This document shows positions 11,834 to 31,805 of a stretch of 64,000 bases of DNA, piece after piece. The notes beneath the pieces are model-generated. The model had not been told where the DNA came from. It was given only the letters and a program-made list of their open reading frames with translations, and did no database searches. Position 1 is the first letter of the stretch; each line of letters opens with the position of its first letter. Made by a program: the position numbers and the translations under genes. The stretch comes from a bacterium. GTDB lineage: Bacteria; Patescibacteriota; Patescibacteriia; Patescibacteriales; GWE2-39-37. The stretch spans positions 2,978 to 66,977 of the forward strand of contig JBAWWA010000005.1 of assembly GCA_037146995.1 (NCBI GenBank), read 5' to 3'.

Positions 11834-12112
11834 TTACTTCTGAAACTTCTTCTGACAATCAATGGCAATTTTTATGCACTCCTCCGGATCATAACCCAAG
11901 TCATCGCACCAACGAATTGTGGAAAATATTATATTGCCTAGCTCCTTTTTTAATTCCTCATCTGTATGCGTATTTGTATCCTTGATCGCATCTCGCTCCC
12001 AGCGACAAAGGTCACCAAAGACCTTGCCCATACGAACAATAATTTGGCTTAAACTTAATTTTTGGCCCGACCAGATTTCTTGACTTTGTTGTAATAGATT
12101 TTTTATTTCCAT
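11834..12112 (-). CDS. MazG-like all-alpha NTP pyrophosphohydrolase family protein
   Basis: 92 aa. The pattern ...GKVFGDLCRWERD...KELGNIIFSTIRWCDDLGYDPEECI resembles the small MazG-like family common in phages. Confidence 0.5.
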   Translation of the reverse strand: MEIKNLLQQSQEIWSGQKLSLSQIIVRMGKVFGDLCRWERDAIKDTNTHTDEELKKELGNIIFSTIRWCDDLGYDPEECIKIAIDCQKKFQK

Positions 12113-12257: not shown

Positions 12258-12296
12258 CTAATCTTTTTTAAATTGTAGGCAATTTTTATTTGACAT
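12258..12296 (-). pseudogene. Truncated relic of a 14th NCPQLK-family gene
   Basis: ATG TCA AAT AAA AAT TGC CTA CAA TTT AAA AAA GAT TAG encodes MSNKNCLQFKKD*. It lies 7 nt after the stop of the previous array gene, the same spacing and signature as the intact copies. Confidence 0.6.
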
Positions 12297-12303
12297 AAAA
12301 ATT

Positions 12304-13263
12304 TTACTTTGAAAAATCAACAATAAATCTAAACGCACGATCATTAGTGGCATCAAATGAGTCATCAGACTTGAATTGACACGGACTTATGTCACCCAAA
12401 TGATTAAAGTTTGCAATTGACCGTCCTCCTCTCAGCCGATATCCATCCAGCGTTTCATCGGAAAATAATTCCTCACTATCACTAAGTCCCCAATGACTGT
12501 AATGCATGTTGCCTAAAACATTAAATTCAATAGCTCGCAGTAATCTAACCTGTTCAGCTCTTACCTTTAACTTTTCAGCAACAGCTGAGACAAAATCACT
12601 ATTATTAAATACTGCTCCTTCGATATTAAATCTACTGCCAGCATCTTGCTCCTTGCCACTAATTGCTCCGTTAGCTCGATAATACTTAATAATATCAGAC
12701 AAATAGTCATTCTTGAATTCTCCTGCGTGATTATTGTAAGTATCACAACCTGGACGCTCACGCTTATCAACCAGCAACCATGAACCTTTTAAAGTAGCTG
12801 AATCATGCTGAATGTGCGGCCCCTTAGTTTTAAAAATTCCCAGTTTAGCATAATTCATCATTTGGTAGAACTCTTTATATGGTCGAAATTTCCAAGCAGC
12901 AAGCTTCGCCTTCTCCGTCATTTCAATTGACGGTAAATACCGTAACTCCATTTCCATTTTTTCCCAATGCTGGATATTCTCCAATGTAGCCTCAGCAGGT
13001 AATTCTGGCACATCAATATTTTTACCAAAAAATTTACTAAGATCTTTACATTCTCTATTTTTTAGCAATTCAATTTTTAATTCTTTACGTTTTTCAATAA
13101 CACTTACTCTCAATTTAGAAATATTAGCCATGTTTCTATCGAAATTTAAGGCATCATTACTTTGAGCGCTTGACGCAATGTTGACCTGTTTAGCAACAAT
13201 GAAAAATTGCTCTTTTAGAGAGCCAATAAATATTTTATGTTGCTTACAGCTTATATTTATCAT
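12304..13263 (-). CDS. NCPQLK-family protein, subfamily A (divergent N-terminus MINISCKQHK; FGE/CLec-like C-terminal tail)
   Basis: Shares FFGKNIDVPELP, ELRYLP, GSWLLVD, RAIEFNVLGNMHYSHW, YRLRGG and FRFIV with the other A members. Confidence 0.8.
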   Translation of the reverse strand: MINISCKQHKIFIGSLKEQFFIVAKQVNIASSAQSNDALNFDRNMANISKLRVSVIEKRKELKIELLKNRECKDLSKFFGKNIDVPELPAEATLENIQHWEKMEMELRYLPSIEMTEKAKLAAWKFRPYKEFYQMMNYAKLGIFKTKGPHIQHDSATLKGSWLLVDKRERPGCDTYNNHAGEFKNDYLSDIIKYYRANGAISGKEQDAGSRFNIEGAVFNNSDFVSAVAEKLKVRAEQVRLLRAIEFNVLGNMHYSHWGLSDSEELFSDETLDGYRLRGGRSIANFNHLGDISPCQFKSDDSFDATNDRAFRFIVDFSK

Positions 13264-13271
13264 AACAATTA

Positions 13272-14201
13272 CTACTGATTAAGCCTAATCATAACCCTAA
13301 AACCAACGCCAGTCGATCTGTCACTAGCGGAGAATGAATCCACCTGATCAATATCCCGTGTTGCACCGAAAACAAATTTAAATGTTTTTCCGTCTTGACC
13401 ACGATCAGAGCAATGTTCGCTTGAATTTGCCTGACCCAACTGAGGATAATACATATTTGCTAAAACATTAAATTCAATTGCCCTTGGATAATCAATGCAT
13501 TCGGGGCTTACAGCAAATATTGACGCAAATTCTTTTTTAGTTCTTTCGTCTTCAAGCTCGTCTAAAGTTATGCTACACCTTGATTCTTTCTTAATTTTTC
13601 CGGTTTTTGATGACTCGGCTATCGCAGCCTCATCTACAACACCCTTGGATTTAAGTCCAGAAATTATAGCAGCTAGTAGGTCATCTTCATATTCCTGAGT
13701 TTCACCCATACTAATACGCCATGGCTTCTTGATATTTTCAATTAAAAACCAACCTGATTTTAACTGAGTAATATCTTTGGGAAATGTTCCTTTATTTATC
13801 ATGTCCCACATTCCAAATGCCCCACTATGTGGCTTTTTCCTCCAACCCGGATACTTAGCGCTCTTGTTCATGTTTATCTCTGGTAAGTAATGAAGATCTA
13901 GACCGAGCTGCTTCCATTGTTCGAGTTTATCTTGTGTTATTTCTTTAGGTAAAAATGACACCTCAATTTTTTCACCAAAAAATTTTTCCAGGGCCATTGC
14001 CTCTCCTTTTCTAATTTCAAAACCAAATGGCAATAACTCTCGAAGATCAGTAATTAGAAACTCAAGAAACATCATCTTACCGTTTATTTTATCGGCATGA
14101 TCACACGTGCTGGCCGTCTGAATAGATTCATTAATATCATCAATTCTGAACTTTAATTCGTCAAGTTGTTTTTTTAATTGTGGGCAATTTAGATTTCGCA
14201 T
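13272..14201 (-). CDS. NCPQLK-family protein, subfamily A
   Basis: MRNLNCPQLKKQL start, with FFGEKIEV, DLHYLP, SGWFLIE, PRAIEFNVLANMYY and a GFRVMIRL end. Confidence 0.85.
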   Translation of the reverse strand: MRNLNCPQLKKQLDELKFRIDDINESIQTASTCDHADKINGKMMFLEFLITDLRELLPFGFEIRKGEAMALEKFFGEKIEVSFLPKEITQDKLEQWKQLGLDLHYLPEINMNKSAKYPGWRKKPHSGAFGMWDMINKGTFPKDITQLKSGWFLIENIKKPWRISMGETQEYEDDLLAAIISGLKSKGVVDEAAIAESSKTGKIKKESRCSITLDELEDERTKKEFASIFAVSPECIDYPRAIEFNVLANMYYPQLGQANSSEHCSDRGQDGKTFKFVFGATRDIDQVDSFSASDRSTGVGFRVMIRLNQ

Positions 14202-14210
14202 AATTTCAAT

Positions 14211-14885
14211 CTATTTCTCATTTTCTATATCTGGAATTACAAAGATATATTTCTGCTCCCAGTCTTGACTAGGTAGCACAGCTAACGTTTGTCGATAACC
14301 ACCCAGGGAGGAATATCGACGATTTGTTAAACAAAACACATACTTTTGACTACCATAAGCTATTGGCTCCATCGCTACAGCGAACCTTTCACCTTCTGCT
14401 AAATGTAAATCCTCTCGCCCTAAATACAATGCTGTTTCGGTCTGACAAAGATCAAATCCGATATCCATAGCTTTTTTATTAACCTCATTGAGATTACTCA
14501 AGTAATCTACACCAAGCGTTTTATAGTCAATAAATGCTATTCTTATTTTTTTTGGAGTATCTGACAGAATGCAATTTATACTCCTAACTACTCCAATCCT
14601 AGTGCTTTCAGCGGGTCCTATAATTTCAGATTCAAGCTTGTTTTTATCAAGAGTGCCACCAATTAACAACTCCTTGGTCTGTATTTGCTCTTTAATTAAA
14701 AATTTTTCAAGACTAACATGTCGCTTAAATTCAAGAACAATATCAAGCAGCTCCTGTGATAAATCTTCAATCTCAGCGAAGTTTTTTCCAGTATCAATAT
14801 TTGCAATATGCTCACCCATAATTAATACTTGCTCTTTAAGGTATTCTAATTTGTATTTTAGCTGTGGGCAATTATTATTGTTCAT
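14211..14885 (-). CDS. NCPQLK-family protein, subfamily B
   Basis: MNNNNCPQLKYKL start. The C-terminal half (IRIAFIDYKTLGVDY...AMDIGFDLCQTE) is homologous only to the next gene. Confidence 0.85.
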   Translation of the reverse strand: MNNNNCPQLKYKLEYLKEQVLIMGEHIANIDTGKNFAEIEDLSQELLDIVLEFKRHVSLEKFLIKEQIQTKELLIGGTLDKNKLESEIIGPAESTRIGVVRSINCILSDTPKKIRIAFIDYKTLGVDYLSNLNEVNKKAMDIGFDLCQTETALYLGREDLHLAEGERFAVAMEPIAYGSQKYVFCLTNRRYSSLGGYRQTLAVLPSQDWEQKYIFVIPDIENEK

Positions 14886-14887
14886 CT

Positions 14888-15595
14888 TTAAACTTTAAAT
14901 ATATATTCGCCAAAATTTGCCTGAGACTTGTAAGATTTTGCACTAATCAATGGATTAACCTCCTCAACTCTAATAAATATCATATTATTGTCCCTGACAT
15001 CAGTGATTGGATCCACAGGAAAATTATACATACCCTGCTTTGCATTTTTTTGACTAGCGAACTGTTCAATAAAAGATACAATGGACTGTGCCGGACAAAG
15101 TTCGAAGCCCATACTCTGAGCCCTTTTTACCAGCTCTACTGACGTTGCACCGTCTTCCAGACCGATTTCATGTGCATCAACACAAACTAACCTTAATTTA
15201 TTTGGACATGTCTCGCTCAAATCAAATCCTATCTGTTCGCGCGTTTTATGAAAGAGCGCAATATTCAATAGTGTGTCTGCGGCCGTTTTATCCATTTCAA
15301 GACCGAAGTTTTTCAATTTAGCAATAGTGCCCTTGTTGGCCAGACAAGAAGGATCTACATTAACCTCCACTAGACCAAACTTTTTAAATAGCTCGTCCTT
15401 GCGTAGTTGCACAAGATTTATTTTTAACTCACCTACCAAATCCTCTAATTTAGCCAACTTATCAAGCATAAAACCAATTTCGTTAGGTTTACAACTACCA
15501 TCTTTAAGTATTTTAACCTCTGTATTCAGCAAATTTTTCTTTGCGATAATATTTACTAGCTGTTTTTTTAGTTGTGGGCAATTCAAATTAGACAT
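14888..15595 (-). CDS. NCPQLK-family protein, subfamily B
   Basis: MSNLNCPQLKKQL start. C-terminal half is LRLVCVDAHEIGLED...AQSMGFELCPAQ. Confidence 0.85.
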   Translation of the reverse strand: MSNLNCPQLKKQLVNIIAKKNLLNTEVKILKDGSCKPNEIGFMLDKLAKLEDLVGELKINLVQLRKDELFKKFGLVEVNVDPSCLANKGTIAKLKNFGLEMDKTAADTLLNIALFHKTREQIGFDLSETCPNKLRLVCVDAHEIGLEDGATSVELVKRAQSMGFELCPAQSIVSFIEQFASQKNAKQGMYNFPVDPITDVRDNNMIFIRVEEVNPLISAKSYKSQANFGEYIFKV

Positions 15596-15598
15596 AAA

Positions 15599-16513
15599 TT
15601 ATTTATCAATACGAACAACCAGACGAAAACCAATATTCTGACTTCTGTACTCGCTGTTAAAATGTCCAATACCGGAGAAGCCATTTTTTGTAGAGCTGCC
15701 AGAGCAGATCGTTGAGCCCAGACTAGCAAAATCATTGTTTAACCATTCCATAGTGCTGGTCTTGCTCCACTCAGGATGATGTATATTACCTAAAAAGTAA
15801 TACTCTGGTAATCTTGGCAAGCCAACTTGAGTCCACTCTACATTTAACAAGTCAGCAAATGCTTGTTTAACACCAATTTTACTCTCTAGTTCTATTGGCG
15901 TTTGTCCATACCTTGATGACTGACTGATCTGCATTTTTTTGTCAGATGCTTGTTGCTTTGAGGCCTTAACTTTTGGCTCGGCCTCAAGTAACCCCATAGC
16001 CTTTAACTTAACAATTACTGGAGCCAAGCTATCATTATTATACTCAGTAACCGGCTCACTTATTTCCGGCTTTGGGCAAGTATCAACTAATATCCAACAG
16101 CCATTTAGCTCGAATTTTGAAAAAAATCCAAGTGATGCACCAAATTGATATAAACTATTTTTTAAATTATTATCAAAATCTTCAAAGCTCGTCTTAGGCA
16201 AGCAATGAAGTTTAAAACCCAGTCTTTCCCAGTTTCTTATTTTTTCATGAGTAACTGACTTCGGAAATTCTGGCAACTCAACTTCACGTTTGAAAAAACG
16301 GCCTATCTTTTGTCTCTCTCTTTTTTGCAACATCAAACCAACCGGCAGCAGTTCTTCAAGCTTAATCATTAAAGATGAGAGCATGTTTATCATCTTATCT
16401 AAATCAGATAAACCTTGTTTATCAACATCAACAATCATCAACTCTATATCGGCCTGAATTTTATCAATTTCTTGAAGCTGTTTTTTTAGTTGTGGGCAGT
16501 TTATATTTTGCAT
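15599..16513 (-). CDS. NCPQLK-family protein, subfamily A
   Basis: MQNINCPQLKKQL start, with KLHCLP, GCWILVD, LGNIHHPEW and a GFRLVVRIDK end. Confidence 0.85.
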   Translation of the reverse strand: MQNINCPQLKKQLQEIDKIQADIELMIVDVDKQGLSDLDKMINMLSSLMIKLEELLPVGLMLQKRERQKIGRFFKREVELPEFPKSVTHEKIRNWERLGFKLHCLPKTSFEDFDNNLKNSLYQFGASLGFFSKFELNGCWILVDTCPKPEISEPVTEYNNDSLAPVIVKLKAMGLLEAEPKVKASKQQASDKKMQISQSSRYGQTPIELESKIGVKQAFADLLNVEWTQVGLPRLPEYYFLGNIHHPEWSKTSTMEWLNNDFASLGSTICSGSSTKNGFSGIGHFNSEYRSQNIGFRLVVRIDK

Positions 16514-16515
16514 AA

Positions 16516-17391
16516 CTATTTATTTTCATTCAATCTGGCCATTAATCTAAAGCCGGTATTATCTGAGCTTCGTTCGAAACCAGTTAGGCCAACAGACGAT
16601 AGATTGTTATCACCAACCCAGCCCGCCACAAGATTTTTCACAATTAATTGGCTATCAGCCAGCCATTCATTACATTCCGTATCGCCCCATTCTGGATGAT
16701 GCATATTTCCCAAAACACTATATTCTATCGCTCTAGGCAACCCCAAGCTTTCAACTGGCACGTTAATTACATACGCCAGTTCATTTAAAATACTCTGGCT
16801 CTTTAGTTCCCGAGCTGTAATATTAAATCTTGAACCACCCTTATCAATACTTTTGATTGCAAAAATGCTTCGCAAATATGCCAAGACGTCACCAAGTAAG
16901 TCATCAACGTAACCATCTCTAGATTTTTTAATTCCTTCAATAAGTATCCACCCAGCCTTAAGTCTTGTTGAGTTTGCTGGTAAAGTGCCGTCGGCAACTA
17001 AATCATAAAAACTTTTATCAAGCTTATTTTGCCAGCCAGGACAACCAACATCTTTTGACATATCCACATCTGGTAAGTAATGAAGCTCCATGCCAAGTTC
17101 TTGCCATTCCATATACTGCTCGGGCGTAACAGTTGCTGGCACATGCAGCACCTTAATTTTATTACCAAAGAATTTTTCCAAGGCAACTGCCTCTTGCCTA
17201 ATTATCTTTCGGTCAAACAATAACGCATCAAAGGTAAGTATCGCATTGGTCAACTCCTCTAATTTATCATTTATATATTCAATTTTTACGTCCTTGTGGC
17301 TAGGAACCTGCAATAACTCAACAACACCGTTTTCAAGCGCTTTTAGTGTGGCTAAATTATTTTTCAGACTCGGACAGTTAATATTTGACAT
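16516..17391 (-). CDS. NCPQLK-family protein, subfamily A
   Basis: MSNINCPSLKNNL start, with FFGNKIKV, ELHYLP, AGWILIE, PRAIEYSVLGNMHHPEWG and a GFRLMARL end. Confidence 0.85.
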   Translation of the reverse strand: MSNINCPSLKNNLATLKALENGVVELLQVPSHKDVKIEYINDKLEELTNAILTFDALLFDRKIIRQEAVALEKFFGNKIKVLHVPATVTPEQYMEWQELGMELHYLPDVDMSKDVGCPGWQNKLDKSFYDLVADGTLPANSTRLKAGWILIEGIKKSRDGYVDDLLGDVLAYLRSIFAIKSIDKGGSRFNITARELKSQSILNELAYVINVPVESLGLPRAIEYSVLGNMHHPEWGDTECNEWLADSQLIVKNLVAGWVGDNNLSSVGLTGFERSSDNTGFRLMARLNENK

Positions 17392-17400
17392 TCAATATAT

Positions 17401-18039
17401 TTATTTAGGCCAGGTTTTTACCCAACTCTTGCCTTGTTCATTAAATCCAAAGATCATCTGGTTCTCCATGTTACCATCCACAAGGACACCACGATTTATC
17501 TCCGTATCTCTTTGCATGCTTGCCTCACCTCTAACATCAATACTCCCAGATTTAAGCATAAATGCATATGACAGACCGTCGGTGACCTCACCGGTATTTT
17601 CGTATTCACTAAAATCTTTTATATCGCCCTCACTAGCCATTAACATTAATAAATTCCCTTGCTGATCAATAATTTCAGACACCAATTTCAACTTGGCAAA
17701 ATCATCACCCAATTCTGCAGTAAACTTCTTAAATAAATCAACAATTTCCTGTCGACTAAAAATAACCTTGCCGAGCATTTGCGAAGTTACGAACTGACTA
17801 ACAAAATGCTCACTTTTTGGCATCAAGTCATCCAAGCCACGCTCTTTTTTAATATTTCGCACAATATCCTTCACACAATAAAGCTGAGCGATCGCAAATC
17901 GCTCTTTTTGTATTCCCTGATCCAAATCATGAATATCAACTGCCTGATCAACATCCTTAATACTCTCGCCAAAATCAACTAAAGCTTGGGCTAGTTTTTG
18001 AAATTCATTTTTTAGTTGTGGGCAGTTTGGATTATTCAT
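17401..18039 (-). CDS. NCPQLK-family protein, unique C-terminal module (212 aa)
   Basis: MNNPNCPQLKNEF start. The remainder is unlike any other copy. Its start (ATGAATAA) overlaps the upstream stop. Confidence 0.8.
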   Translation of the reverse strand: MNNPNCPQLKNEFQKLAQALVDFGESIKDVDQAVDIHDLDQGIQKERFAIAQLYCVKDIVRNIKKERGLDDLMPKSEHFVSQFVTSQMLGKVIFSRQEIVDLFKKFTAELGDDFAKLKLVSEIIDQQGNLLMLMASEGDIKDFSEYENTGEVTDGLSYAFMLKSGSIDVRGEASMQRDTEINRGVLVDGNMENQMIFGFNEQGKSWVKTWPK

Positions 18040-19198
18040 AATTTATATCAAAAACCTTTTCACCTTTTTTATTTATATAGTAAGACGCGCCACCTTTACT
18101 AACAAACGCAATATCACCAACGAAGGGATTCGTTTTACTGAAAGAATCTTTTATTGCTAATTCGCCACTCTTATTGATATACCCCCACCTACCGTTTATC
18201 ATTATCGAAGCAAGGCCTTCATAAAAATCAGATACTACATTAAATGAATTTCCATAAAAATTTTGACCACTTTTAAAAATAATATTTTCACCCCTATCTA
18301 TTGCAATTATCTCTTCGTTAACAACTGCCCAAGCAATACCATCACTAAACTGTCGTAAAAATTGGTATTTTTTATTTGATACTTTTTCTCCATCAAGACC
18401 TACAAAATAGCAAGAATCTTTTTCTTTAATGACCGCCAACCCATCTTTAAAATCTGAAACAGCTTCACCATACATTTCATATAGCTCGTCTCCTGTATTG
18501 TCAATTAAGATCGTATCATCGCCAAATTTAACAAACGCTCTTTCATTATGAAACTCACCAGCTTCATCATATTCACCAAAAACCTTTTCACCCTTACTAT
18601 TTATATAAAAACAATCATTGTCCTGTTTGACCGAGCAAAACCCCTCACTAAATCGCCCAACATCGTCATAGCATTCATCGTTCAAACTACCTCCATCTTT
18701 AGTCACAAAATTATATCCAGTTCCAAGATTCCAATGTGCAACACCTTCATAAAAATCACTAACATCTTGATAGCCAGATCCAATTTCCTCACCATTTTCA
18801 TCTATCCAAGTCCAATCGCCATACATGCTTACCCTGGCCATGCCTTCGTGAAAATCACAAACCTCATCATAGTCAACTCCAATTTTTTGCCCTGACTTAT
18901 CGATAAAAAATTGTCTATCACCCTGAATTACTTTTGCACGATCATCAATAAATCTACCAACAAAATTATAATTAAATTTCTCGGCTAGTTTAAGCCTATA
19001 CTTTAAACCAAAAAACGCCTCATTTGTTTTGATCAGTTCTATTTGATTTTGAAGATCATCAATAACTGCTGAAAAATTTTCCAATTCACCAATATTTGTA
19101 GCTTCGTGAATATGACTAACAAAATTATGTGCCTTATCTTCCAAGGCTTTTATTGCACTTAAACTCATTCTAAGTTGTGGACAGTATAAATTGTTCAT
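18032..19198 (-). CDS. NCPQLK-family protein with C-terminal WG (KWG-type) beta-repeats
   Basis: MNNLYCPQLRMSL start, followed by about 8 repeats of F-x-(E/D)G-x-A-x-V...(W/Y)-x-(Y/F)-I-(N/D)-x-x-G-E, e.g. FYEGLASIMINGRWGYINKSGE. Confidence 0.85.
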   Translation of the reverse strand: MNNLYCPQLRMSLSAIKALEDKAHNFVSHIHEATNIGELENFSAVIDDLQNQIELIKTNEAFFGLKYRLKLAEKFNYNFVGRFIDDRAKVIQGDRQFFIDKSGQKIGVDYDEVCDFHEGMARVSMYGDWTWIDENGEEIGSGYQDVSDFYEGVAHWNLGTGYNFVTKDGGSLNDECYDDVGRFSEGFCSVKQDNDCFYINSKGEKVFGEYDEAGEFHNERAFVKFGDDTILIDNTGDELYEMYGEAVSDFKDGLAVIKEKDSCYFVGLDGEKVSNKKYQFLRQFSDGIAWAVVNEEIIAIDRGENIIFKSGQNFYGNSFNVVSDFYEGLASIMINGRWGYINKSGELAIKDSFSKTNPFVGDIAFVSKGGASYYINKKGEKVFDINYE

Positions 19199-19214
19199 AA
19201 TTTTATATAAATTT

Positions 19215-20225
19215 TCAACTGCGAGAAAAGACTACTCCAACATTGCGACGTGAATCGCTAAGCCCTCTGCCATAAACACTCGCACCGCCAAGATCAACAT
19301 TACCAACATCGACTATATTACCAACCGAATCACAGCGCATCGTCCATGCCTTAGTATTTTCCAATAATTTTTCATCATTATTCTGTCTATAACTAAAAAT
19401 ATCATATAAAACCTCGGCGGGAGTTTGCCTGGATAACTGATTGATTTTCAATGCCGAGAGCTCACGTGCGTACTTTTTAGAGGTCGGACCACTAATTAAA
19501 TCTTGAATCTCACCATCAGTTTTGCCTTTAAAATTCTTCACAAAGTAATCAACATACTCATCCATGGCTTCGATAAATTTTCTTGGTATAGCAGTGCCGC
19601 CACACTCTGTGTTGAATAAATCATCTACATAATCATAAAGAACTCTCGTTTGCTCGAAATAATTCTTATCCGTTGAGGCTGGAATAATTTCTTTGGAAGT
19701 TAGCGACCATCTGAATTTAATTGGATCGTTTTGCCAAAAATCTTCTAGACTAAACAACTCTTTCAAATCAGCTAATTCCTTGTAGGTAATTTTTCCTTTT
19801 TGACTTTCGTCATAACCACCGTCCAATAAGCTAGCTCGTACTCGCTCCATAGTCAATGGTTGACCTTCACGGTCTATATCAGAACGCAATACCAAGAACT
19901 GACCAAGCTCTTTGGCTTTAATTAATTCCTCTTTTGAGAATTGAATAGCCGGAATATTTTCTTTTGAAATCTCAATGCCAAAAGCTTTTTTGACCTCATC
20001 TGGCCCCAACACCTCCCTGGTACCCATGATTTCTTTGGCACGCTCAATTGATACTGGTGTTTGTTTTTTTAACTCTTTTAATAATACTTCGGCCTGATTC
20101 AAGTTTGCTTGAACATCAAAGATATTTTTTTTGTTAACAACACCAATCTCCATCTTAATTACTGATTGAAGCTTCTTGAGTTCTTTGAGTTGTGATTTTA
20201 GTTGTGGGCAATTCAAATTACTCAT
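19215..20225 (-). CDS. NCPQLK-family protein, unique C-terminal module (336 aa)
   Basis: MSNLNCPQLKSQL start. Its start codon overlaps the stop of the VWA gene (ATGAGTAA). Confidence 0.85.
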   Translation of the reverse strand: MSNLNCPQLKSQLKELKKLQSVIKMEIGVVNKKNIFDVQANLNQAEVLLKELKKQTPVSIERAKEIMGTREVLGPDEVKKAFGIEISKENIPAIQFSKEELIKAKELGQFLVLRSDIDREGQPLTMERVRASLLDGGYDESQKGKITYKELADLKELFSLEDFWQNDPIKFRWSLTSKEIIPASTDKNYFEQTRVLYDYVDDLFNTECGGTAIPRKFIEAMDEYVDYFVKNFKGKTDGEIQDLISGPTSKKYARELSALKINQLSRQTPAEVLYDIFSYRQNNDEKLLENTKAWTMRCDSVGNIVDVGNVDLGGASVYGRGLSDSRRNVGVVFSRS

Positions 20226-23244: not shown

Positions 23245-23256
23245 GTAAATTATAAA

Positions 23257-24714: not shown

Positions 24715-24715
24715 A

Positions 24716-24916
24716 CTAAGCAGCAACCTCGGCCGTATCTGGGCAAAGCTCGGCAATTTCCTCCTCAAGTGACTTAATCTCCTCCTGCAAGCCCTTAAAC
24801 TTTTCTACTAACTCCTTCTTTTGCATTTCAAACTTTTTTTGTTCTAGTGCCTCAGTGCTTTGTGTAAATGTTTCTTTTGCAGCAGATTCAAATCCGCCCA
24901 TGCCTGGATTTTTCAT
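24716..24916 (-). CDS. 66-aa coiled-coil protein ending in ...EIAELCPDTAEVAA
   Basis: Heptad-like E/K-rich sequence. It sits 4 nt after the AAA gene stop and 1 nt before the next start. Confidence 0.6.
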   Translation of the reverse strand: MKNPGMGGFESAAKETFTQSTEALEQKKFEMQKKELVEKFKGLQEEIKSLEEEIAELCPDTAEVAA

Positions 24917-24920
24917 AGAT

Positions 24921-27900
24921 TTATTTATTAGATAATTTATTAATTAAATTTTGTGCTCTTTGTTCTGGTGTCATATTCGCAGCTTCTGCTAATTCTTCGT
25001 CACTAAGCATACTTCTTTTGTGCAAATACCCTTCAAGGAAGGCGAAGAACTCTTCATAGGTTTCAAGCTTCGCACCCTTCTCTGCTTCATCAAATTTGAC
25101 CTCATACTCCTTAATCTTATCTATGACCATATCGAGCTCCTTAATACTGTCATATTCCAACCCAACCATAAGCTCCATTATCTTCTTGACCTGCTTAACC
25201 ATCTCAAGTCCGCGAATTTCTGCCTCCGTGTCATCTTCACCTTCACGCATCTTGCCAGCTATCTTCTCATATTCCTCTTTTTTGCGCATCGGTAAATAGC
25301 CAAAGACTAACTGGGTCATTTCGAGCGAAGAAAAATATGACAACTCATATTGCCCCTGTGTATTGAGCATACTGACATAGTCGCCATTCTGGGCAATACG
25401 TTTATATTTCCCATCGACTTCACCAGCAACACCTTCATATTTGCCCAAATCTCGCAATGGATCAAAATTCATCATTTGCTTAAAATCAGTAACCGCCTGA
25501 CTCTGATTTGAATCAACTCTCATATAATCAGGCCAACCACCGTCGGCACTAAAAAATCCTGCTTTATTTAAAGTCGCATAAATCACAGCCTGAGCCTGGG
25601 GGTGCTGGTCATATTTCTTCACATAATTCCACAGATAATATTCGATATCCATAGATCCACCCTGGTCAACATAAGCCCCCAAAATCTGATCCATCAATTC
25701 ACGCATGGTTAGATTAGCACTACTCAAAGAACTAGCGATAAGGGCTGGTGTCACGTCTGCACCAAGAATTGGCTTCAAGTTATCAAGTCTCAAGCCACTA
25801 TTTCCAGCCTTGCCCTCAAAAACATCCATTATCAAACGAGCACCAACACTTAGGCGATACATGTCCTTGAAAAATGAATAACGATCATCTTTTTTGACCA
25901 AGACCCTGGCACCCAAGCGCTGATTCATCATCTTCATGAGTAACACCTCAAATATCTGATCATTTTTAGCCAGCGACTTTGAATCATCAATAATTTTCTG
26001 TAGCTCCTCATCATCTTTAAACTCGTCAGTAATATGACCCAAGTTCAAACGCTCAATATCAGTTTTAGCCTCATTAAGTTGATTGCTTTGTGGCAAATAA
26101 TTAACTTGCACCGGAATAATACGACTGTAAGTAGCTGGATCAGTGTCATTATGGCGCGCTTTGGTATAGCGGTCACCAGTGTTACCAGTCCAAATTACAC
26201 AATAGCCGGGCTTAATTTGGAATTCACCAATCGAAGCCTGAGTTTTTTGTGTCTCGCCAATCTTCTTGGTTAAGAGATCGTTAAAAGCAATTAAAACTTC
26301 TGGGGGGATGGCGTTTGCCTCGTCAATAATAAGCGGTACGCCCTGGCGCATGGCTTCATACATTGCACCTAATACAAATCTACCTTGTACTGGATTACCA
26401 TAGACACTAGCGAGTTGGCCATTAACCAACTCTTCTGTCTCACCTCTTAATTTTTTCTCATTTTTCTTAAAATACGCTTCAAAACCACTCTCAGTATCAT
26501 CTTGATCTTCGGACAATGAATTATGATATTCCTGACGAGCCACCTGCATAAATACCGCCTCACGCTGCTCTTTTTCTGATCCTACCATGGCAGCAATTGT
26601 CTTGGTCAAAGACTCATTACTGCTTAAGTCCACGTCTTCGCCAAATTTCTTGGCAATAATTTTGAAATGCTCTTCTGGTGTCAAATTCTCAATCTTGAAA
26701 GTTTCAGTAAAGCGGTCCGGCTCTAAATATTTACTACCAGAAACAATAATCGGATCTTTTGATTTGCCGTTTTCATCTTTACCTGTCAGATAATTTCGAG
26801 CAATGTGAGTCGCCAAGGCAGTCTTGCCCGTACCATGGTCACCATGTAAATAAACGATAGTTGGTGACTTGCCCTCTTGCACTTTAAGCACTGGCAAAAT
26901 CTTTTCGATAATACTTTTGATGTATGGCGTCTCAACAATTTTACCATTGTGTAGCATCTGCCAAAGATTACCCAATTCACGCTTGTAGTTTACGTAGGCC
27001 GGCAAAAACTCCTTTGCCACAATATTTCCAGACTTTTCATATTCAGTCTCCATGCCAACATTCAAATTCAAACCTAAATTCTTTTTGGCTAATCGAGAAA
27101 AGCGCTCATTTAGTTTACCAATTCTTTCCTGCTTCAACCTAGGTCGCATTGCACCAAGCTCCTCAGAGCTTCTAAGCATATCGACATTTCGACTAGACTT
27201 GCTTGCCGCCAAGGTAGATTTATTTTGCCTAAGTTTTCGTATCGTATCTCGAACATCTGGATACTGGGCTTGAGCATATTTTTCAATCGATTTCATTTCG
27301 TCATCAGAATATGCACCAAGCTCTTGATCTAATTCAAAATATTCTTCCAGGTTTAAAAAAGCTCGATGAGATTTACCAGCAGCTCGATTTTCTGCTTCGC
27401 GATAAGCATTACTACTAGTATTCTCTTGATCATGTTCAGATAAACTTGCCAACTCTTTGTTCTCAATTGACTGCATTATAAAGTCATAAAAATCATCACC
27501 ATCTTCTGTTTCGGCTATTTTTAACAAGTCCTTAAAGACTTCAACATTTACATTATTCGTTTTATTCTCATCACTTTTTTCGACCAAGGCAATTTTAGCT
27601 GCTGTTAATGTTTTATGAATAATTTCTGGCGACATTTCTCTCGACTCAAGTTCTTTAGCCAAACCATCAATTTTTTTGAAATCTTTTGCATGAGCTAATA
27701 TCTCTTCCACATCTTCACGATGCACACCATCGAACAATGATTGCAAGGTTTCACTCGATAAATCTTTTACGGTAATATTCTCAACCATTTCATCCATCAA
27801 GGCACGTGATTCTTCGAGTTTAGCCATGTAGCCAAAGGCTAAATCCTCAGCTTCAAACGTATTCTCTAATTTAGTATCTTTTGCCGCCTCGGTCGAACGT

Positions 27901-27929
27901 GCGACTGGCGGTCGATTTTCCTTAAACAT
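24921..27929 (-). CDS. Large (1002 aa) AAA+ ATPase, MoxR / AAA_5 (CbbQ/NorQ/GvpN-like) core with long helical extensions
   Basis: Walker A is LHGDHGTGKTALA. Walker B plus the downstream helix is PLIIDEANAIPPEVLIAFNDLL, typical of the MoxR/AAA_5 clade. It lies adjacent to a VWA gene. Confidence 0.8.
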   Translation of the reverse strand: MFKENRPPVARSTEAAKDTKLENTFEAEDLAFGYMAKLEESRALMDEMVENITVKDLSSETLQSLFDGVHREDVEEILAHAKDFKKIDGLAKELESREMSPEIIHKTLTAAKIALVEKSDENKTNNVNVEVFKDLLKIAETEDGDDFYDFIMQSIENKELASLSEHDQENTSSNAYREAENRAAGKSHRAFLNLEEYFELDQELGAYSDDEMKSIEKYAQAQYPDVRDTIRKLRQNKSTLAASKSSRNVDMLRSSEELGAMRPRLKQERIGKLNERFSRLAKKNLGLNLNVGMETEYEKSGNIVAKEFLPAYVNYKRELGNLWQMLHNGKIVETPYIKSIIEKILPVLKVQEGKSPTIVYLHGDHGTGKTALATHIARNYLTGKDENGKSKDPIIVSGSKYLEPDRFTETFKIENLTPEEHFKIIAKKFGEDVDLSSNESLTKTIAAMVGSEKEQREAVFMQVARQEYHNSLSEDQDDTESGFEAYFKKNEKKLRGETEELVNGQLASVYGNPVQGRFVLGAMYEAMRQGVPLIIDEANAIPPEVLIAFNDLLTKKIGETQKTQASIGEFQIKPGYCVIWTGNTGDRYTKARHNDTDPATYSRIIPVQVNYLPQSNQLNEAKTDIERLNLGHITDEFKDDEELQKIIDDSKSLAKNDQIFEVLLMKMMNQRLGARVLVKKDDRYSFFKDMYRLSVGARLIMDVFEGKAGNSGLRLDNLKPILGADVTPALIASSLSSANLTMRELMDQILGAYVDQGGSMDIEYYLWNYVKKYDQHPQAQAVIYATLNKAGFFSADGGWPDYMRVDSNQSQAVTDFKQMMNFDPLRDLGKYEGVAGEVDGKYKRIAQNGDYVSMLNTQGQYELSYFSSLEMTQLVFGYLPMRKKEEYEKIAGKMREGEDDTEAEIRGLEMVKQVKKIMELMVGLEYDSIKELDMVIDKIKEYEVKFDEAEKGAKLETYEEFFAFLEGYLHKRSMLSDEELAEAANMTPEQRAQNLINKLSNK

Positions 27930-27950
27930 AGGGTTAAAAATTATTGATCT

Positions 27951-28955
27951 TTAAAAACGTGTTTTATATGTTACTCCATACAAATTTTTATATTGACCTT
28001 CATCTATCTCCTCTGCTAACGTCTTGTCTATTACCACGAGATTATCATGAAACAAGGCAAAATCTCTATGGATATCTAACATCTCAGCTAAGTTGTTATC
28101 AATAACGAGTTCTGGCTGCTTGAAGGCACGGATCTCAAGGTAATAATCTTTATGCTTAATCAAGTCACAAAGCATTTCGCGGGTCATTGGATCGTTGGTT
28201 TCTATTACTAGTTTGCCCTTAAACTTTACTAATTCCTTACATATCTCTGGCGTTATGTTGCAATTAAGCGAAATTGCCTCATTGTGCTGCATTAATAATT
28301 TAGCAGCCTCAACGTCTGCCACCCCGCCAAACCGCAGATCTCCTTTAACATCTTCCAATGCCGATAAAGCTTCCTTGGAATAAGTTTTAAAATCGCCTAA
28401 GTATATTTTTCCGTCATGTCCATCAAGTTTCTGCAATGACTCAACGCTTATTTTGTCAAAAGTTTGCAAATTAAGTGTACCTACATGTTCGCTCAAGCCC
28501 TCGGCTGCCCCTGGCGTTAACTCTTCTAACGCCTCAAAAGTCAAATTACCTTCATGCTTCCCAAGCTGTTCTGCCACTTCTGGCGTCAAGTGCGACAATC
28601 GTCGGAGATAGATTTCATTACTCTTTCTTTTGCCCTTCAATAAATTAATATTTCCCATCGGCCCTTGAGTTAACGGGGTACTCCTGGCCGCAACCTTTTC
28701 ATGTCGTTCAACCAAAAATTCAGCAACCTCAGCATTCAACTCAGTTATTTCTTCGCACTTATCCAGCTTACCATTCACAATCTCTTGCCATAACTTCATA
28801 TTACGAAGTTCTTCTATCTGGTCATGCAAATAGATAAACAAATCCTTAGCATCGGTGAATTCGTCCCTTGATTTAATATCACACAACAAATCACCCAAAA
28901 CTTTTTCGGTATTTCTAAGTGCTGGTAATTTTAACTTAAGACTAGGGCAATACAT
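27951..28955 (-). CDS. NCPQLK-family protein (MYCPSLKLKL start) with LRR-like repeats of about 24 aa
   Basis: Repeats include LTPEVAEQLGKHEGNLTFEALEELTPGAAEGLSEHVGTLNLQTFDKISVESLQKLDGHDGKIYL. Confidence 0.8.
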   Translation of the reverse strand: MYCPSLKLKLPALRNTEKVLGDLLCDIKSRDEFTDAKDLFIYLHDQIEELRNMKLWQEIVNGKLDKCEEITELNAEVAEFLVERHEKVAARSTPLTQGPMGNINLLKGKRKSNEIYLRRLSHLTPEVAEQLGKHEGNLTFEALEELTPGAAEGLSEHVGTLNLQTFDKISVESLQKLDGHDGKIYLGDFKTYSKEALSALEDVKGDLRFGGVADVEAAKLLMQHNEAISLNCNITPEICKELVKFKGKLVIETNDPMTREMLCDLIKHKDYYLEIRAFKQPELVIDNNLAEMLDIHRDFALFHDNLVVIDKTLAEEIDEGQYKNLYGVTYKTRF

Positions 28956-28974
28956 GGGGTTTGATATTTACTTT

Positions 28975-29004
28975 ATTTTACCAACTTTTCACAAATTTGA
29001 CCAA
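28975..29004 (-). promoter_or_regulatory. Putative internal promoter of the array
   Basis: The minus strand reads TTGGTC, an 18-nt spacer, then TAAAAT, with TGG immediately 5' of the -10 (extended -10 TGGTAAAAT). This is about 20 nt upstream of the ATG at 28955. Confidence 0.35.
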
Positions 29005-29027
29005 CAAAAAAGAGGGCTTGCCCTCCT
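29005..29027 (-). terminator. Weak intrinsic terminator inside the array
   Basis: The minus strand reads GAGGG-caag-CCCTC followed by TTTTTT. It sits in the only sizeable (96-nt) gap of the array. Confidence 0.35.
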
Positions 29028-29051
29028 GTGGATATTATAGCAGGTTTTATA

Positions 29052-29927
29052 TTAAAAACGAACCATAGGGCGGAAACCCATCGTGTTATCACGACGACTT
29101 TCTGGATAATAGTTAACATGCGAAAGACCGCCGTCAACAGAAATACCACCATAAAGCCGGTAACCTCCATCATATATGTCACTAAACCATTCGTAATTTG
29201 TGGTCGTGCCCCATTCCTGGTGATGTATATTACCCAGAACATTGAAATCAATCGCACGAGGTAACGTCATCTTATCTGCTTGAACTTTTAATACACTGGC
29301 TAATGTCTCTCGAACTTCTATTTTTTCTAATTCTTTAGCAATAATGCCGAATCTTGAATCCTTTTTCTCAAAATCATCTATTACTCCATCTTGACGTAAA
29401 AGCGCTAACGATTCAGCAAGAATATCATTCTCATACTGCATTTTTTGGCTTGGTTTTTGTCGACCATCAATCAATACCCAACCAGACTTTAATTCGTCTG
29501 AAGTAATAGAAATCTTTCCATCAAGCATACAGTCATAAAACCATTTTTTTGGCCTTTCCCTCCATCCGGGGTAATCTTTATCTTGGCTCATTTCTATTTC
29601 AGGCAAATAATGCAATTCAAAGCCTTGCTCTTTCCATTTCTCCGCCTGTTTAACTGTAATTTCTTCTGGTAATTTAGGCACCTCAATCGGCATACCAAAA
29701 AAGGCTTCGAGTTTTTGCTTCTCTGATTTTATCAATTCACGAAAGTGTAGTTTTTCGTTTATCTCATTGATTAGCTCCAAGGCGTCATTAAAAATAGCAT
29801 AAACCTCGGAAACTTTAGACTCCTTGAAATTTGTTAAGTTCAATTCTTCTAGCTCAACAGCAATCGTATTTTCTTTGGCTTTGAGGAGAAAGAGTTGTTT
29901 TTTTAATTGTGGGCAGTTAAATGTCAT
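29052..29927 (-). CDS. NCPQLK-family protein, subfamily A
   Basis: MTFNCPQLKKQL start, with FFGMPIEVPKLP, ELHYLP, SGWVLIDGRQKP, PRAIDFNVLGNIHHQEW, YRLYGG and a GFRPMVRF end. Confidence 0.85.
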   Translation of the reverse strand: MTFNCPQLKKQLFLLKAKENTIAVELEELNLTNFKESKVSEVYAIFNDALELINEINEKLHFRELIKSEKQKLEAFFGMPIEVPKLPEEITVKQAEKWKEQGFELHYLPEIEMSQDKDYPGWRERPKKWFYDCMLDGKISITSDELKSGWVLIDGRQKPSQKMQYENDILAESLALLRQDGVIDDFEKKDSRFGIIAKELEKIEVRETLASVLKVQADKMTLPRAIDFNVLGNIHHQEWGTTTNYEWFSDIYDGGYRLYGGISVDGGLSHVNYYPESRRDNTMGFRPMVRF

Positions 29928-29938
29928 AATTCAATACA

Positions 29939-30829
29939 TTAAAATCTAACCATAAGGCGAAAACCTAGCATCTTATCTCGAAAATTTGAATCAACAACTC
30001 GAATATCAGAAAGACCACCTGCATCGCTATTTCCACCGCAAAGATGCCGATCATCATCAATCAAACTATCACTAAACCATTCGCGATTCTCTGTATTATC
30101 CCAATCTTGATAATGTAAGTTGCCTAAAATATTAAAATCAATGGCCCTTGGCAATGAGACGTTATCAGGTGACACGGCCAAAACCTCCGCCAGTAATGTC
30201 ATAACTTCAACTTGTTTTAATTCATCAAAACTAATATCATACCTACTTCCAGTGTTTTTTGTTTTAATTTGCCCTGACTTCTCCAACTTAGCCAACGCAT
30301 CTTTAAAACAATCATTCTCATATGAATGGGCATTAAAATTCTGCCCATACGGCTTTTGCCGACCATCAATTAATACCCACCCGGATTTTACTTCATCTGA
30401 ATCAATTGAAAGGCTCCCAAAATTAACAGAATCGTAAAACAAATTATTAGGCTTCTTGGTCCAACCGGGAAACTCCCTGTCATTTGACATTTTAACATTT
30501 GGCAAATAATGCAATTCGAATTGTTGCTTCTGCCAAGCTTCTACCATATCCTTGGTTATTTCAGCTGGTGGGTTTGGCACATCAATCGAAAAACCAAAAA
30601 ATTCATCAAGTTTAGCTTTTTCAGTTTCAATTAAATCCCTAAATGGCATTAGCTCTTTAATTTTATTAATCAAATTACTAGTCTCTTGAAAAGTGTCATA
30701 AACCTTATCAACGTTCGATCGTTCGAAGTTAGTCAAACTCAACTCATCAAGTTCTACAGCAATCATATCTTGCTTAGCGAGTAACTGATGAAGTAATATT
30801 TTAATTTGTGGGCAATTCTTATTTCGCAT
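29939..30829 (-). CDS. NCPQLK-family protein, subfamily A
   Basis: MRNKNCPQIKILL start, with FFGFSIDVPNPP, ELHYLP, SGWVLIDGRQKP, PRAIDFNILGNLHYQDW and a GFRLMVRF end. Confidence 0.85.
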   Translation of the reverse strand: MRNKNCPQIKILLHQLLAKQDMIAVELDELSLTNFERSNVDKVYDTFQETSNLINKIKELMPFRDLIETEKAKLDEFFGFSIDVPNPPAEITKDMVEAWQKQQFELHYLPNVKMSNDREFPGWTKKPNNLFYDSVNFGSLSIDSDEVKSGWVLIDGRQKPYGQNFNAHSYENDCFKDALAKLEKSGQIKTKNTGSRYDISFDELKQVEVMTLLAEVLAVSPDNVSLPRAIDFNILGNLHYQDWDNTENREWFSDSLIDDDRHLCGGNSDAGGLSDIRVVDSNFRDKMLGFRLMVRF

Positions 30830-30842
30830 TTACTTATTTAAA

Positions 30843-31733
30843 CTAAAAGTGAATAAAAAGACGAAAGCCCAAATTGTCACGTTCCTCATTGCAGGCCATA
30901 TTTTTAATATCAGAAAACTTACAATTTCCATAGTTATCACCACTAACCAAATAGTCATTATTCCCAAGTTTATCATTAAACCATTCAAAATTGTAGGATT
31001 TCTCCCACTCCTTATGGTGCATTTGCCCTATTACATTATACTCGATTGCCCTTGGTAGTTCTATTTGACGTAAAGATACCCCTAAAACCTCACTAAAACC
31101 CTGCTTGGCTTCTCCGGTATTCAAGCGCAGTGGATTTGTTCTAAATCTAGTAGTGGCTGTTTGCGAATTATTCCTAATTATACCTTCTTGTCTCATTTCT
31201 GCAATTTTTTCGCCTAAGGCATCATTTATGTATACATCACCTCTGCTATCTGGCTTCTGTGTTGCGTCAACAAGAATCCAACCAGCTTTCAACTGATCTG
31301 CGCTAGCATCAATTTTACCGTTTTTAATATATTTATAGAATGAATCATTGGGCTTTTTCTTCCAGCCAGGAAATACATCTTTTTCGCCCATTTTGATATC
31401 TGGCAAATAATGAAGCTCAAAATTTTGCTCTTGCCACATGGCCATTTTCTCATAGGTCACCTCTGACGGCAAACTAGGCACCTCAATTGTCATGCCAAAA
31501 AACGCCTCGAGCTTTTGCTTTTCTGATTTAATCAATTCATTGAAAGGCAACTTTTCCTTCAATTTTAATACTAAATCACTAGTCTGCTCTAGCATCTTAT
31601 AAACTTCGTCAGCTTTTGCTTGTTTATAGCCACCAGCCAACTGCAGTTCTTCAATTTCTACCTTTAAGGTATTCTGCTTGGCCAAAATAATATGCAACCT
31701 TGATTTTAATTGTAAGCAGAGTTTACTTGCCAT
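30843..31733 (-). CDS. NCPQLK-family protein, subfamily A (degenerate MASKLCLQLK start)
   Basis: The ATG at 31731-31733 places Cys at position 6, as in the other copies. Also has FFGMTIEVPSLP, ELHYLP, AGWILVD, PRAIEYNVIGQMHHKEW and a GFRLFIHF end. Confidence 0.8.
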   Translation of the reverse strand: MASKLCLQLKSRLHIILAKQNTLKVEIEELQLAGGYKQAKADEVYKMLEQTSDLVLKLKEKLPFNELIKSEKQKLEAFFGMTIEVPSLPSEVTYEKMAMWQEQNFELHYLPDIKMGEKDVFPGWKKKPNDSFYKYIKNGKIDASADQLKAGWILVDATQKPDSRGDVYINDALGEKIAEMRQEGIIRNNSQTATTRFRTNPLRLNTGEAKQGFSEVLGVSLRQIELPRAIEYNVIGQMHHKEWEKSYNFEWFNDKLGNNDYLVSGDNYGNCKFSDIKNMACNEERDNLGFRLFIHF

Positions 31734-31805
31734 AAATAATAACATGAATGAATTTTATAAGTTTGGCAGGTAACCAAAAATTTTGCCAACTTTTTTGCCA
31801 AACCA

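Follow-up and report, generated by a model that had tools for sequence, protein, structure and literature searches.

A prophage-borne array of proteins with a common N-terminal cysteine module and unrelated C-terminal modules, associated with a MoxR-vWA core in bacteria of the candidate phyla radiation

The present work deals with a 64,000-nt stretch of DNA (contig JBAWWA010000005.1; hereafter the window) from a bacterium of the candidate phyla radiation (CPR), where a prophage carries an island built around an array of 17 consecutive and tightly packed genes on the minus strand (12304-31745), as established from the listing of open reading frames (ORFs) and their translation. Fourteen of these 17 genes encode proteins starting with a common N-terminal module (N-module) containing a single invariant cysteine and followed by C-terminal modules (C-modules) of several unrelated kinds, and the array further includes a core of three genes, namely for a MoxR-type AAA+ ATPase, a small protein with a single Cys, and a large protein combining an HExxH (zincin-like) motif with a vWA domain. 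The same core, together with 3 to at least 18 genes of the "M-x-x-C + helix" type, was found in more than ten other CPR-type loci, mostly non-phage, and the finding is as such more general than is visible from the window alone. On balance, the island is probably an NTP-dependent MoxR-vWA conflict or defence system, the recognition of which would be spread over a germline repertoire of separate sensor proteins; its function and the binding ascribed to its proteins are what we infer from sequences and models.

Organisation of the array

All positions are coordinates of the 64,000-nt window and genes are named by their lower coordinate. The intergenic gaps of the array range from -8 to +21 nt, with the sole exception of 96 nt at 28956-29051, exactly as described in an initial annotation of this DNA made from the sequence alone, which had nonetheless counted sixteen consecutive genes instead of 17 and thirteen signature-bearing proteins instead of 14. 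The N-module is encoded by genes 12304, 13272, 14211, 14888, 15599, 16516, 17401, 18032, 19215, 23257, 27951, 29052, 29939, and 30843; with the start of 23257 corrected to the ATG at 24714 and that of 30843 to 31733 (31745 being an alternative start), the motif stands at Met1 in every copy. The single relic copy reported earlier is indeed present at 12258-12296 (-), as 12 codons of a further array gene reading MSNKNCLQFKKD and then a stop in translation, with a weak match to model positions 1-11 of the hidden Markov model (HMM) of the N-module.

Regarding their C-modules, the array proteins fall into the classes first proposed, i.e., a seven-member family, two proteins with WG beta-repeats, one with leucine-rich repeat (LRR)-like repeats and the pair 14211/14888. 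The family of seven, with a C-module of lectin fold (FGE/DGR-target type, DGR standing for diversity-generating retroelement), comprises 12304-13263 (-), which has a degenerate N-module (ISCKQHK) and is a paralogue of 29052 (E 4e-43), 13272-14201 (-), 15599-16513 (-), and 16516-17391 (-), all three assigned by paralogy, HMM and alignment row, 29052-29927 (-), taken as representative for modelling, 29939-30829 (-), with 51% identity to 29052, and 30843-31733 (-), with a weak N-module (MASKLCLQLK). WG beta-repeats follow the N-module in 18032-19198 (-) and, after a weak N-module (MQTDCSVIK; HMM E 2e-15), in 23257-24714 (-), and LRR-like repeats follow a short one (MYCPSLK; HMM E 4e-23) in 27951-28955 (-). 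The paired C-modules belong to 14211-14885 (-), with no Pfam, PHROG or PADLOC match, and 14888-15595 (-), assigned by paralogy and HMM. Of the two proteins initially viewed as singletons, 17401-18039 (-) does stand apart, its 140-aa C-module being without family match, whereas 19215-20225 (-) shares a junction segment with the lectin family and its C-module recurs in other loci, namely L038, L043 (two copies), and P0028.

The N-terminal module

The N-module starts with the consensus M-x-N-x-N-C-P-Q-L-K, or weaker variants thereof, in the 14 window proteins. An HMM built from the window, in line with a check proposed in the initial annotation, recovered all 14 copies (E 1e-15 to 7e-31) and returned no other significant match among 9,891 six-frame ORFs of the 1.2-Mb genome. 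A Cys lies within residues 2-10 in 14/14 array proteins compared to 36/793 (4.5%) of the other ORFs of the genome, and, in the comparison of 53 N-modules from at least eight loci, this Cys is the only invariant residue. The Pro following it is not fixed, as CQ, CG, CK, CN, CS, and CL also occur, and is substituted in four of the 14 copies here and in the majority of those from L039 and L041. The suggestion that Cys-Pro might constitute a heme-regulatory site fails because the Pro is not conserved, the Cys alone being invariant, and this candidate was dropped. A lipoprotein lipobox was likewise considered and dropped, since only 2-9 residues and no hydrophobic segment precede the Cys.

The AlphaFold2 (AF2) model of 29052 places the N-module in two helices (residues 6-31 and 36-77) forming a hairpin of lower confidence. 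The "(F/K)FG turn" was originally regarded as part of the N-terminal module; because homologues without N-module retain the FFG segment, the latter is the start of the lectin C-module, so that the N-module, i.e., one invariant Cys and a helical hairpin, measures about 55-65 aa and not 80. As anticipated, it corresponds to no named family, with no match in Pfam (E 0.1 or below), PHROG or PADLOC. Neither signal peptide nor transmembrane helix was found in the 14 array proteins, for which the maximum Kyte-Doolittle mean over 19 residues is 1.39 or below.

Within a locus, N-modules can be far more similar to each other than the C-modules they precede, namely 90% identical versus about 25% in L038 and up to 80% versus 22% in L043. 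N-modules 80-90% identical borne by unrelated C-modules require recombination or concerted evolution. Their sequence types are moreover locus-specific (CPQLK, CPQLR, CQEIT, CGEIT, and CPELT), which is the pattern expected from such sequences if all copies must fit one locus-encoded partner. Of note at the DNA level, the initial ~40 nt of the array genes constitute a repeat family with 11 copies in 12266-31743, 66-76% identical, where in all 11 listed copies the Cys codon is TGC and the Pro codon CCA; this family could mark recombination sites, if it goes beyond what protein conservation gives.

The N-module is absent from the ATPase, the vWA protein, the small protein and the AAA_14 protein encoded next to the array (HMM and hhalign, with probabilities <1%), and its coupling to the core, if real, is therefore heterotypic. 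The complex of the N-module with the 66-aa core protein, the prediction of which had been proposed as a check, obtained an ipSAE of 0.45 (best control 0.00), in three runs sharing at least 87% of their contacts and with a partner pLDDT of at least 63. In calibration, the ipSAE mark was passed by 58/80 solved complexes and 2/110 mismatched pairs, those passing at 0.60 or below being 7/80 solved complexes along with both passing mismatches, and the complex thus passes weakly. As regards searches further afield, the window profile returned only six external matches among 1.84 billion representatives, indicating that it misses the divergent CQEIT and CGEIT types, and a merged profile of the 53 N-modules returned its own input sequences alone from a set of 5.8 billion, which is uninformative.

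C-terminal modules and the link to diversity-generating retroelements

The seven proteins with ELHYLP and GFR signatures are full-length paralogues with 26-50% identity. The AF2 model of 29052 (built from 17 sequences; pLDDT 90.5) contains a compact domain from about residue 95, for which 49 of the top 50 Foldseek matches in the PDB have the FGE/lectin fold, a comparison that the initial annotation had proposed. VIA alignments, spanning ~150 residues at 3.3 A, gave Z scores of 9.7 with CarF, 9.4 with the DGR target TvpA, 9.3 with PvdO, ~9 with EgtB, and 8.6 with FGE, and the G-F-R tail is invariant in the alignment of the family.

The homologue P0005 (locus L004) is a bona fide variable protein of a DGR: a second copy of the final 104 nt of its gene lies 377 nt downstream and differs from them at four positions, all of which are template adenines, and this pair of variable repeat (VR) and template repeat (TR) is followed by a reverse transcriptase (RT) gene. 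The lectin family occurs in 13/400 other genomes of the phylum, in single copy each, and a DGR RT lies alongside the lectin gene in at least four of these 13 genomes. As for the window genome (1.2 Mb, 94.8% complete), RVT_1 was not found in it, nor was any repeat resembling a TR in 9000-35000. The seven paralogues vary most at the codons equivalent to DGR targets, with a column entropy of 2.33 bits, compared to 1.57 bits for the remaining VR codons and 1.51 bits for other parts of the C-module (Mann-Whitney p 3e-5); the scaffold formed by Gly, Leu, Arg, and GFR is retained. A scan of IMG/VR with the lectin family yielded no relatives. On a metagenome contig (L005:1-120), the tail of a lectin gene is 92% identical to that of 30843 and is followed by a WG-repeat gene rather than a lectin gene, and close relatives of the island hence vary in gene order.

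The other C-modules are more heterogeneous. WG_beta_rep (PF14903) matches 18032 with 102.8 bits (E 9e-30) and 23257 with 50.6 bits (E 2e-13), the gathering cut-off being 25.6. The ESM Atlas model of 27951 (pLDDT 0.72) resembles LRR proteins with TM scores of 0.66-0.73, and no Pfam LRR model matches. Proteins 14211 and 14888 pair with E 3e-10. Protein 19215 aligns with the lectin family in hhalign at 95% probability over residues 1-118, its C-terminal part alone reaching E 0.05 only, and the AF2 model of its family (five sequences; pLDDT 46) is unusable. No signal was obtained in hhalign between the lectin family and the C-modules of 14211, 14888, 17401, and 27951. The identified C-modules, i.e., lectin fold, WG repeats and LRR-like repeats, are all binding scaffolds, from which actual binding may be presumed. 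Searches of Pfam, PHROGs, and PADLOC with the array and vWA proteins and their neighbours matched only WG_beta_rep, AAA_5, and AAA_14/DUF4143 (PDC-S01).

The core proteins

The MoxR-type AAA+ ATPase (24921-27929, -; 1002 aa) matches AAA_5 (E 9e-8; 32.7 bits for a cut-off of 22 bits) and phrog_249 (E 1.5e-11), with Walker A at 363-370 and Walker B at 533-537, and is 36-41% identical to its homologues in L039, L041, and L043. The gene after it (24716-24916, -), a constant gene at this place, encodes a coiled-coil protein of 66 aa whose only Cys (C58) is close to the C-terminus, and a small protein with a C-terminal Cys follows AAA_5 in 7/7 loci examined.

The third core protein (20218-23244, -; 1008 aa), with 19 full-length homologues of 32-43% identity, consists of an N-terminal HExxH (zincin-like) domain, a charged low-complexity linker and a C-terminal vWA domain with a full metal ion-dependent adhesion site (MIDAS). 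The residues H102, E103, H106, E157, and D158 are invariant in the 19 homologues, as are D784-x-S786-x-S788 and D926 of the MIDAS, and T890 is present in at least 90% of them. The vWA assignment rests on these motifs and on weak PDB matches, because Pfam does not match: with a C-terminal profile, 12 of 13 weak PDB matches were vWA or I-domains, including integrin I-domains. PDB sequence searches with the two large core proteins and the 19-sequence profile gave nothing significant. ESM Atlas leads for the zincin region (CobT and DUF2201_N, 15% and 23% of nearest-cluster members, respectively) were not used as evidence.

Recurrence of the core and array in other loci

In the other loci, homologues of the vWA-zincin protein adjoin an AAA_5 ATPase of ~1000 aa, a small Cys protein and arrays of genes with an N-terminal Cys. 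Locus L043, flanked by housekeeping genes, comprises 11 genes starting with M-x-K-x-CPQLR; L039, in genome G242, comprises at least 18 starting with MNCQEIT or variants over ~35 kb; the genes of L041 start with MDCGEIT or MNCKELT; L166, in a housekeeping neighbourhood, has three starting with CPELT or CAEF; and further short contigs present the same core-plus-array pattern. Many C-modules of these loci are WG repeats. L038 brings together the genes for a vWA-zincin protein, a lectin protein with N-module, an AAA_14/DUF4143 protein, and a protein of the 19215 type with N-module, AAA_14/DUF4143 being paired with N-module or lectin genes in L004 and L006 as well as in L038. Homologues elsewhere are not, then, singletons devoid of AAA and vWA neighbours or of C-terminal swapping, and the idea of a constant N-terminal adaptor on swappable, binding-type C-termini, associated with AAA and vWA genes, is supported both by this recurrence and by the contrasting identities of N- and C-modules. 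The epithet "phage-borne" holds for the window only, the other loci being chromosomal or island-borne; the core was found in 2/400 other genomes of the phylum, and no relative of it in 50,697 deposited phage genomes (INPHARED; tblastn) or in a pattern scan of IMG/VR.

DGR elements are also found next to the core itself. A DGR-type RT lies directly upstream of the vWA-zincin gene in L152, and the more distant AAA_5/vWA(HExxH) pair of L001 and L002 is accompanied by three lectin paralogues and an RT remnant. The latter, a DGR-type remnant of 103 aa (GLPLGNLTSQ...YCDD), is located between a lectin gene and the vWA(HExxH) gene (L002:10873-11184), and the lectin paralogues (L001:10001-15018 and L002) have a different N-terminus in common, MERFPGYKIYEEY, their differences lying mainly in the VR-equivalent tail; no TR was found within the fetched DNA of these two loci. 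Of note, the largest array, that of G242, abuts the PADLOC candidate system PDC-M68A/B (L130:2728-5447, G242:C3; E 2e-63 and 1e-176), HerA/VirB4-like ATPases and a large serine recombinase, with the appearance of a mobile defence island.

Proposed function and alternative explanations

In the explanation considered probable, the N-module would dock every sensor onto one locus-encoded partner, the candidates being the small Cys protein and the zincin domain. A sensor bound to an invader could then be remodelled by the MoxR-vWA pair, and the output would be proteolysis by the HExxH domain, possibly helped by the neighbouring AAA_14/DUF4143 protein. From the motifs alone, the HExxH protease might be gated by the invariant Cys acting as a cysteine switch. 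The array would as such do without an RT what DGR hypermutation does, using many fixed receptors in place of a single mutable one. A more elaborate version, which we hold to be possible but doubtful as a whole, sees up to about 20 separately encoded cytoplasmic receptors (lectin-fold, LRR, WG-repeat, and others) plugging through the Cys tag into a single MoxR-vWA-metalloprotease hub, where (i) the invariant Cys would be either a switch on the HExxH zinc or a link, covalent or through a metal, with the small Cys protein, (ii) ligand binding by any single receptor would fire the same protease, and (iii) the repertoire would be interchangeable in evolution with single-receptor DGR hypermutation and mobilised by CPR phages.

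Several points weigh against the proposal of a defence system with dispersed sensors. The predicted binding of the N-module to the 66-aa protein is only a weak pass. The proteolytic role of HExxH is deduced from motif conservation, 20218 having no Pfam match for a vWA or zincin domain and no significant PDB sequence match, and no classical effector (nuclease, TIR, pore-former) was recognised in the island. The four unassigned C-modules (14211, 14888, 17401, and 19215) may be effectors or of another nature altogether. The argument for defence is one of genomic association and, CPR bacteria being episymbionts, the "invader" could be a host or partner molecule.

It is rather unlikely that the MoxR-vWA pair serves instead as a chaperone loading or assembling the binders into a cytoplasmic or surface-directed structure, for dealings with a host cell or for regulation. 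Characterised MoxR-vWA pairs are mostly assembly chaperones (PMC7159879) and CPR DGR targets have no established role (PMC8144416); in addition, one N-module gene is near a prepilin peptidase and another beside a gene resembling, by eye only, a secretion ATPase at its N-terminus. The 14 proteins are, however, devoid of signal peptides and hydrophobic segments, and the system has defence candidates for neighbours. It is moreover rare and patchy (2/400 genomes) and is found on mobile elements as well, which suits accessory conflict cargo better than core symbiosis. The absence of any adaptor function, with the common N-terminus a remnant of tandemly duplicated DGR-target genes that lost their RT and the proteins independent of the ATPase and vWA protein, would account for the seven full-length paralogues, the junction segment still shared by 19215, the lack of RT in the genome and the fact that, in most CPR genomes, the DGR target of the lectin family stands alone, with neither AAA_5 nor vWA genes nearby. 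Such a remnant hardly explains why WG-repeat and LRR-like C-modules, which are unrelated folds, also bear the N-module, nor the 80-90% identity of N-modules on unrelated C-modules in L038 and L043, the Cys kept in all 53 copies against the 4.5% background, and the fact that one set of three core genes accompanies such proteins in more than ten loci, and we regard it as improbable.

The virion offers another possible destination for the array proteins, either as receptor-binding tips anchored by the N-module or as structural accessories, the MoxR-vWA pair being an assembly chaperone. In favour of this view, Mtd and other DGR targets of lectin fold are receptor-binding proteins of phages, and Mtd is itself among the Foldseek matches; the island follows the tail and lysis genes in the same orientation, and a role of MoxR-vWA in the tail assembly of an archaeal virus is cited in PMC7159879. 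The case against is broader: phages sharing the same head, tail and lysis backbone lack the island and have restriction-modification (R-M) or other cargo there, the core and array occur amid housekeeping genes (L043 and L166) and in a serine-recombinase island, the phage sets searched hold no relative of the core, and the phage has a C1q-domain fibre of its own. None of eight array proteins matched a PHROG at E 0.01 or below, a result which by itself leaves membership of such families open. A virion role is in our opinion slightly more improbable still than the absence of any adaptor function. In polymorphic toxin loci, the N-terminus stays constant while the C-termini vary, and a truncated relic lies at the end of the array. 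The array resembles them in layout, and the N-module could by analogy be a trafficking or loading domain and the C-modules toxins for competitors; considering that the identified C-modules are binding scaffolds without catalytic signatures, that the gaps of -8 to +21 nt accommodate no ORF of immunity-gene size and that neither secretion-system genes nor secretion signals are present, a toxin cassette is highly implausible. Virion anchors and toxin trafficking domains had both been cited as precedents in the initial annotation, and no such relationship was found.

Relation to known systems

The closest known kind is that of the vWA-MoxR ternary conflict systems, with FGS (lectin-fold) domains and effector-associated domains (EADs), described by Kaur, Burroughs, Iyer and Aravind (2020; PMC7159879). 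The resemblance lies in (i) a MoxR-clade AAA+ ATPase adjoining a vWA protein with MIDAS, (ii) FGE/lectin-fold domains as the variable ligand-binding part, with a link to DGRs, (iii) a small helical terminal domain common to neighbouring proteins and closer within than between loci, and (iv) repeat "superstructure" domains among the variable parts. In contrast to these systems, the lectin, WG, and LRR domains are here separate proteins instead of vWA fusions, the vWA protein has an N-terminal HExxH in place of C-terminal effectors, and up to 14 receptors (here) or at least 18 (G242) are present per locus. While the published systems are enriched in multicellular bacteria (PMC7159879), the hosts are here unicellular, ultra-small CPR bacteria and the carrier in the window is a prophage. 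As far as sequence comparison indicates, the system falls outside the VMAP, iSTAND, FtsH, and propeller classes. Unlike in VMAP systems, the ATPase and three orthologues are devoid of N-terminal WxhapG and PsWRxa motifs (regular-expression search), and no VMAP-C-type Pfam family matched the 18 island proteins at E 0.1, with a Pfam copy that may lack VMAP models. Unlike in the iSTAND, FtsH and propeller types, the vWA protein ends with the vWA domain and no FtsH or STAND core is found among the island proteins, where sub-threshold P-loop matches fall on the Walker A of AAA_5 and WG repeats belong to separate proteins.

The precedent of the EADs, put forward in the initial annotation, stands in part. 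The N-module, like EADs, is a small and mostly helical terminal domain, present in 14 copies in adjacent genes and closer to the copies of its own locus than to those elsewhere; unlike EADs, it is found on no core protein, matches no named Pfam EAD family (E 0.1), and has one invariant Cys. By analogy, the N-module seems to work like an EAD rather than being one.

According to a proposal by Dore et al. (2024; PMC10907252), lectin domains diversified by DGRs serve MoxR systems as antigen sensors. In the clade 5A loci of that study, as in the island, a MoxR-like ATPase is encoded next to a lectin-fold protein with an unassigned N-terminal extension, and the lectin domain is the proposed sensor. 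Here, by contrast, the phylum is different, neither RT nor TR is present, diversity comes as seven fixed paralogues along with other binder folds, and the N-terminal extension is defined as a common Cys-hairpin module. The variable proteins of CPR (clade 2) DGRs, the role of which was stated as open (Roux et al., 2021; PMC8144416), are soluble proteins of the same family as the seven lectin-fold proteins, without transmembrane helix or other recognisable domain. Those are single-copy, linked to an RT and usually without AAA_5 or vWA neighbours, whereas the family is here seven-fold, RT-free, tagged with the N-module and part of a MoxR-vWA island. The island is also comparable to the defence hotspots of prophages (cargo or "moron" regions) in being located between lysis cassette and integrase, with a type I R-M system at that place in a relative; it differs from them in the 21-kb size of the cargo and in that no catalogued defence system matched except for a PDC-S01-like ATPase.

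The points of interest are accordingly the Cys tag, the RT-free receptor repertoire, the link with CPR DGR targets and the carriage by a phage. Soluble DGR target proteins of CPR (PMC8144416) gain a testable context, since the same family appears wired to a MoxR-vWA-zincin core. One protein family would follow two routes to diversity, namely hypermutation of a single gene (L004 and L152) versus a fixed multi-gene repertoire, the latter also recruiting LRR-like and WG-repeat domains; lectin and LRR folds are likewise found in animal immune receptors. The vWA-MoxR conflict systems would be extended to ultra-small episymbionts and to a phage, which bears on their proposed link with multicellularity. 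Finally, the Cys-hairpin tag, the small Cys protein and the HExxH domain would make up a simple three-part interface open to biochemistry.

Prophage setting and neighbouring features

The host FtsZ is 68% identical to that of metagenome-assembled genomes of Candidatus Falkowbacteria and Parcubacteria. The prophage, of 47.4 kb, is bounded by an exact direct repeat of 23 bp, TACATCATTTTTTTCCGAATAAA, with attL at its left end by the integrase (9316-9338) and attR at 56740-56762, where it overlaps the 3' end of the host ftsZ (56739-57983). Its gene set comprises a tyrosine integrase (9464-10372, -; Phage_integrase E 4e-39; phrog_1), an endolysin of the amidase type (34178-34633, -; Amidase_2 E 3e-17) closing the conserved backbone before the cargo, a C1q-domain fibre, tape measure, tube, capsid and portal. 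From the AAA_14 gene to the relic, the island (12258-33209) amounts to 21 kb, i.e., ~44% of the prophage. Its first gene (31806-33209, -) encodes the AAA_14/DUF4143 ATPase (AAA_14 E 6e-34; DUF4143 E 8e-22), a PADLOC candidate (PDC-S01, E 1e-58). In IMG/VR, phages whose capsids are 70-86% identical retain synteny over the tail genes, a holin-like gene, the amidase and a 108-aa gene (33422-33748), and diverge past the latter: at the island position, one carries a complete type I R-M system (L133:11581-19995; HsdM, HsdS, DUF4238, and HsdR) and another a Schlafen/AlbA_2-HATPase_c_4 protein with a secreted nuclease and other genes (L131:9616-15992). As these relatives share the backbone yet diverge here, the island is accessory cargo in a variable hotspot.

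As to transcription signals, a consensus scan detected a terminator-like hairpin followed by a promoter-like site in the 96-nt gap (28975-29027, -) and a second such pair just upstream of the AAA_14 gene (33250-33396, -). These consensus matches hint that the island might comprise two or three transcription units and have its own promoter, the count of promoter-like sites in the scan being not above that of shuffled controls. The sequencing runs carrying the region consist of one DNA run, a lake water metagenome and probably the source of the sequence, with no RNA run listed.

Further genes deserve mention. The tail fibre (35047-37293, -) has a C-terminal C1q domain (Pfam E 1e-8), and related phages have unrelated genes of 150 aa and 578 aa at this position, so that the receptor-binding module is swapped as well. 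Pfam yielded no match at E 0.001 or below for a 2649-aa ORF (1124-9073, -) situated just outside the prophage, nor, at the same threshold, for a 92-aa ORF (11834-12112, -) located between relic and integrase, which is MazG-like by eye (EELKKELGNIIFSTIRWCDDLGYDPEE). The early region of the prophage encodes a ParB_N-N6_N4 DNA methylase fusion (52415-53653, -).

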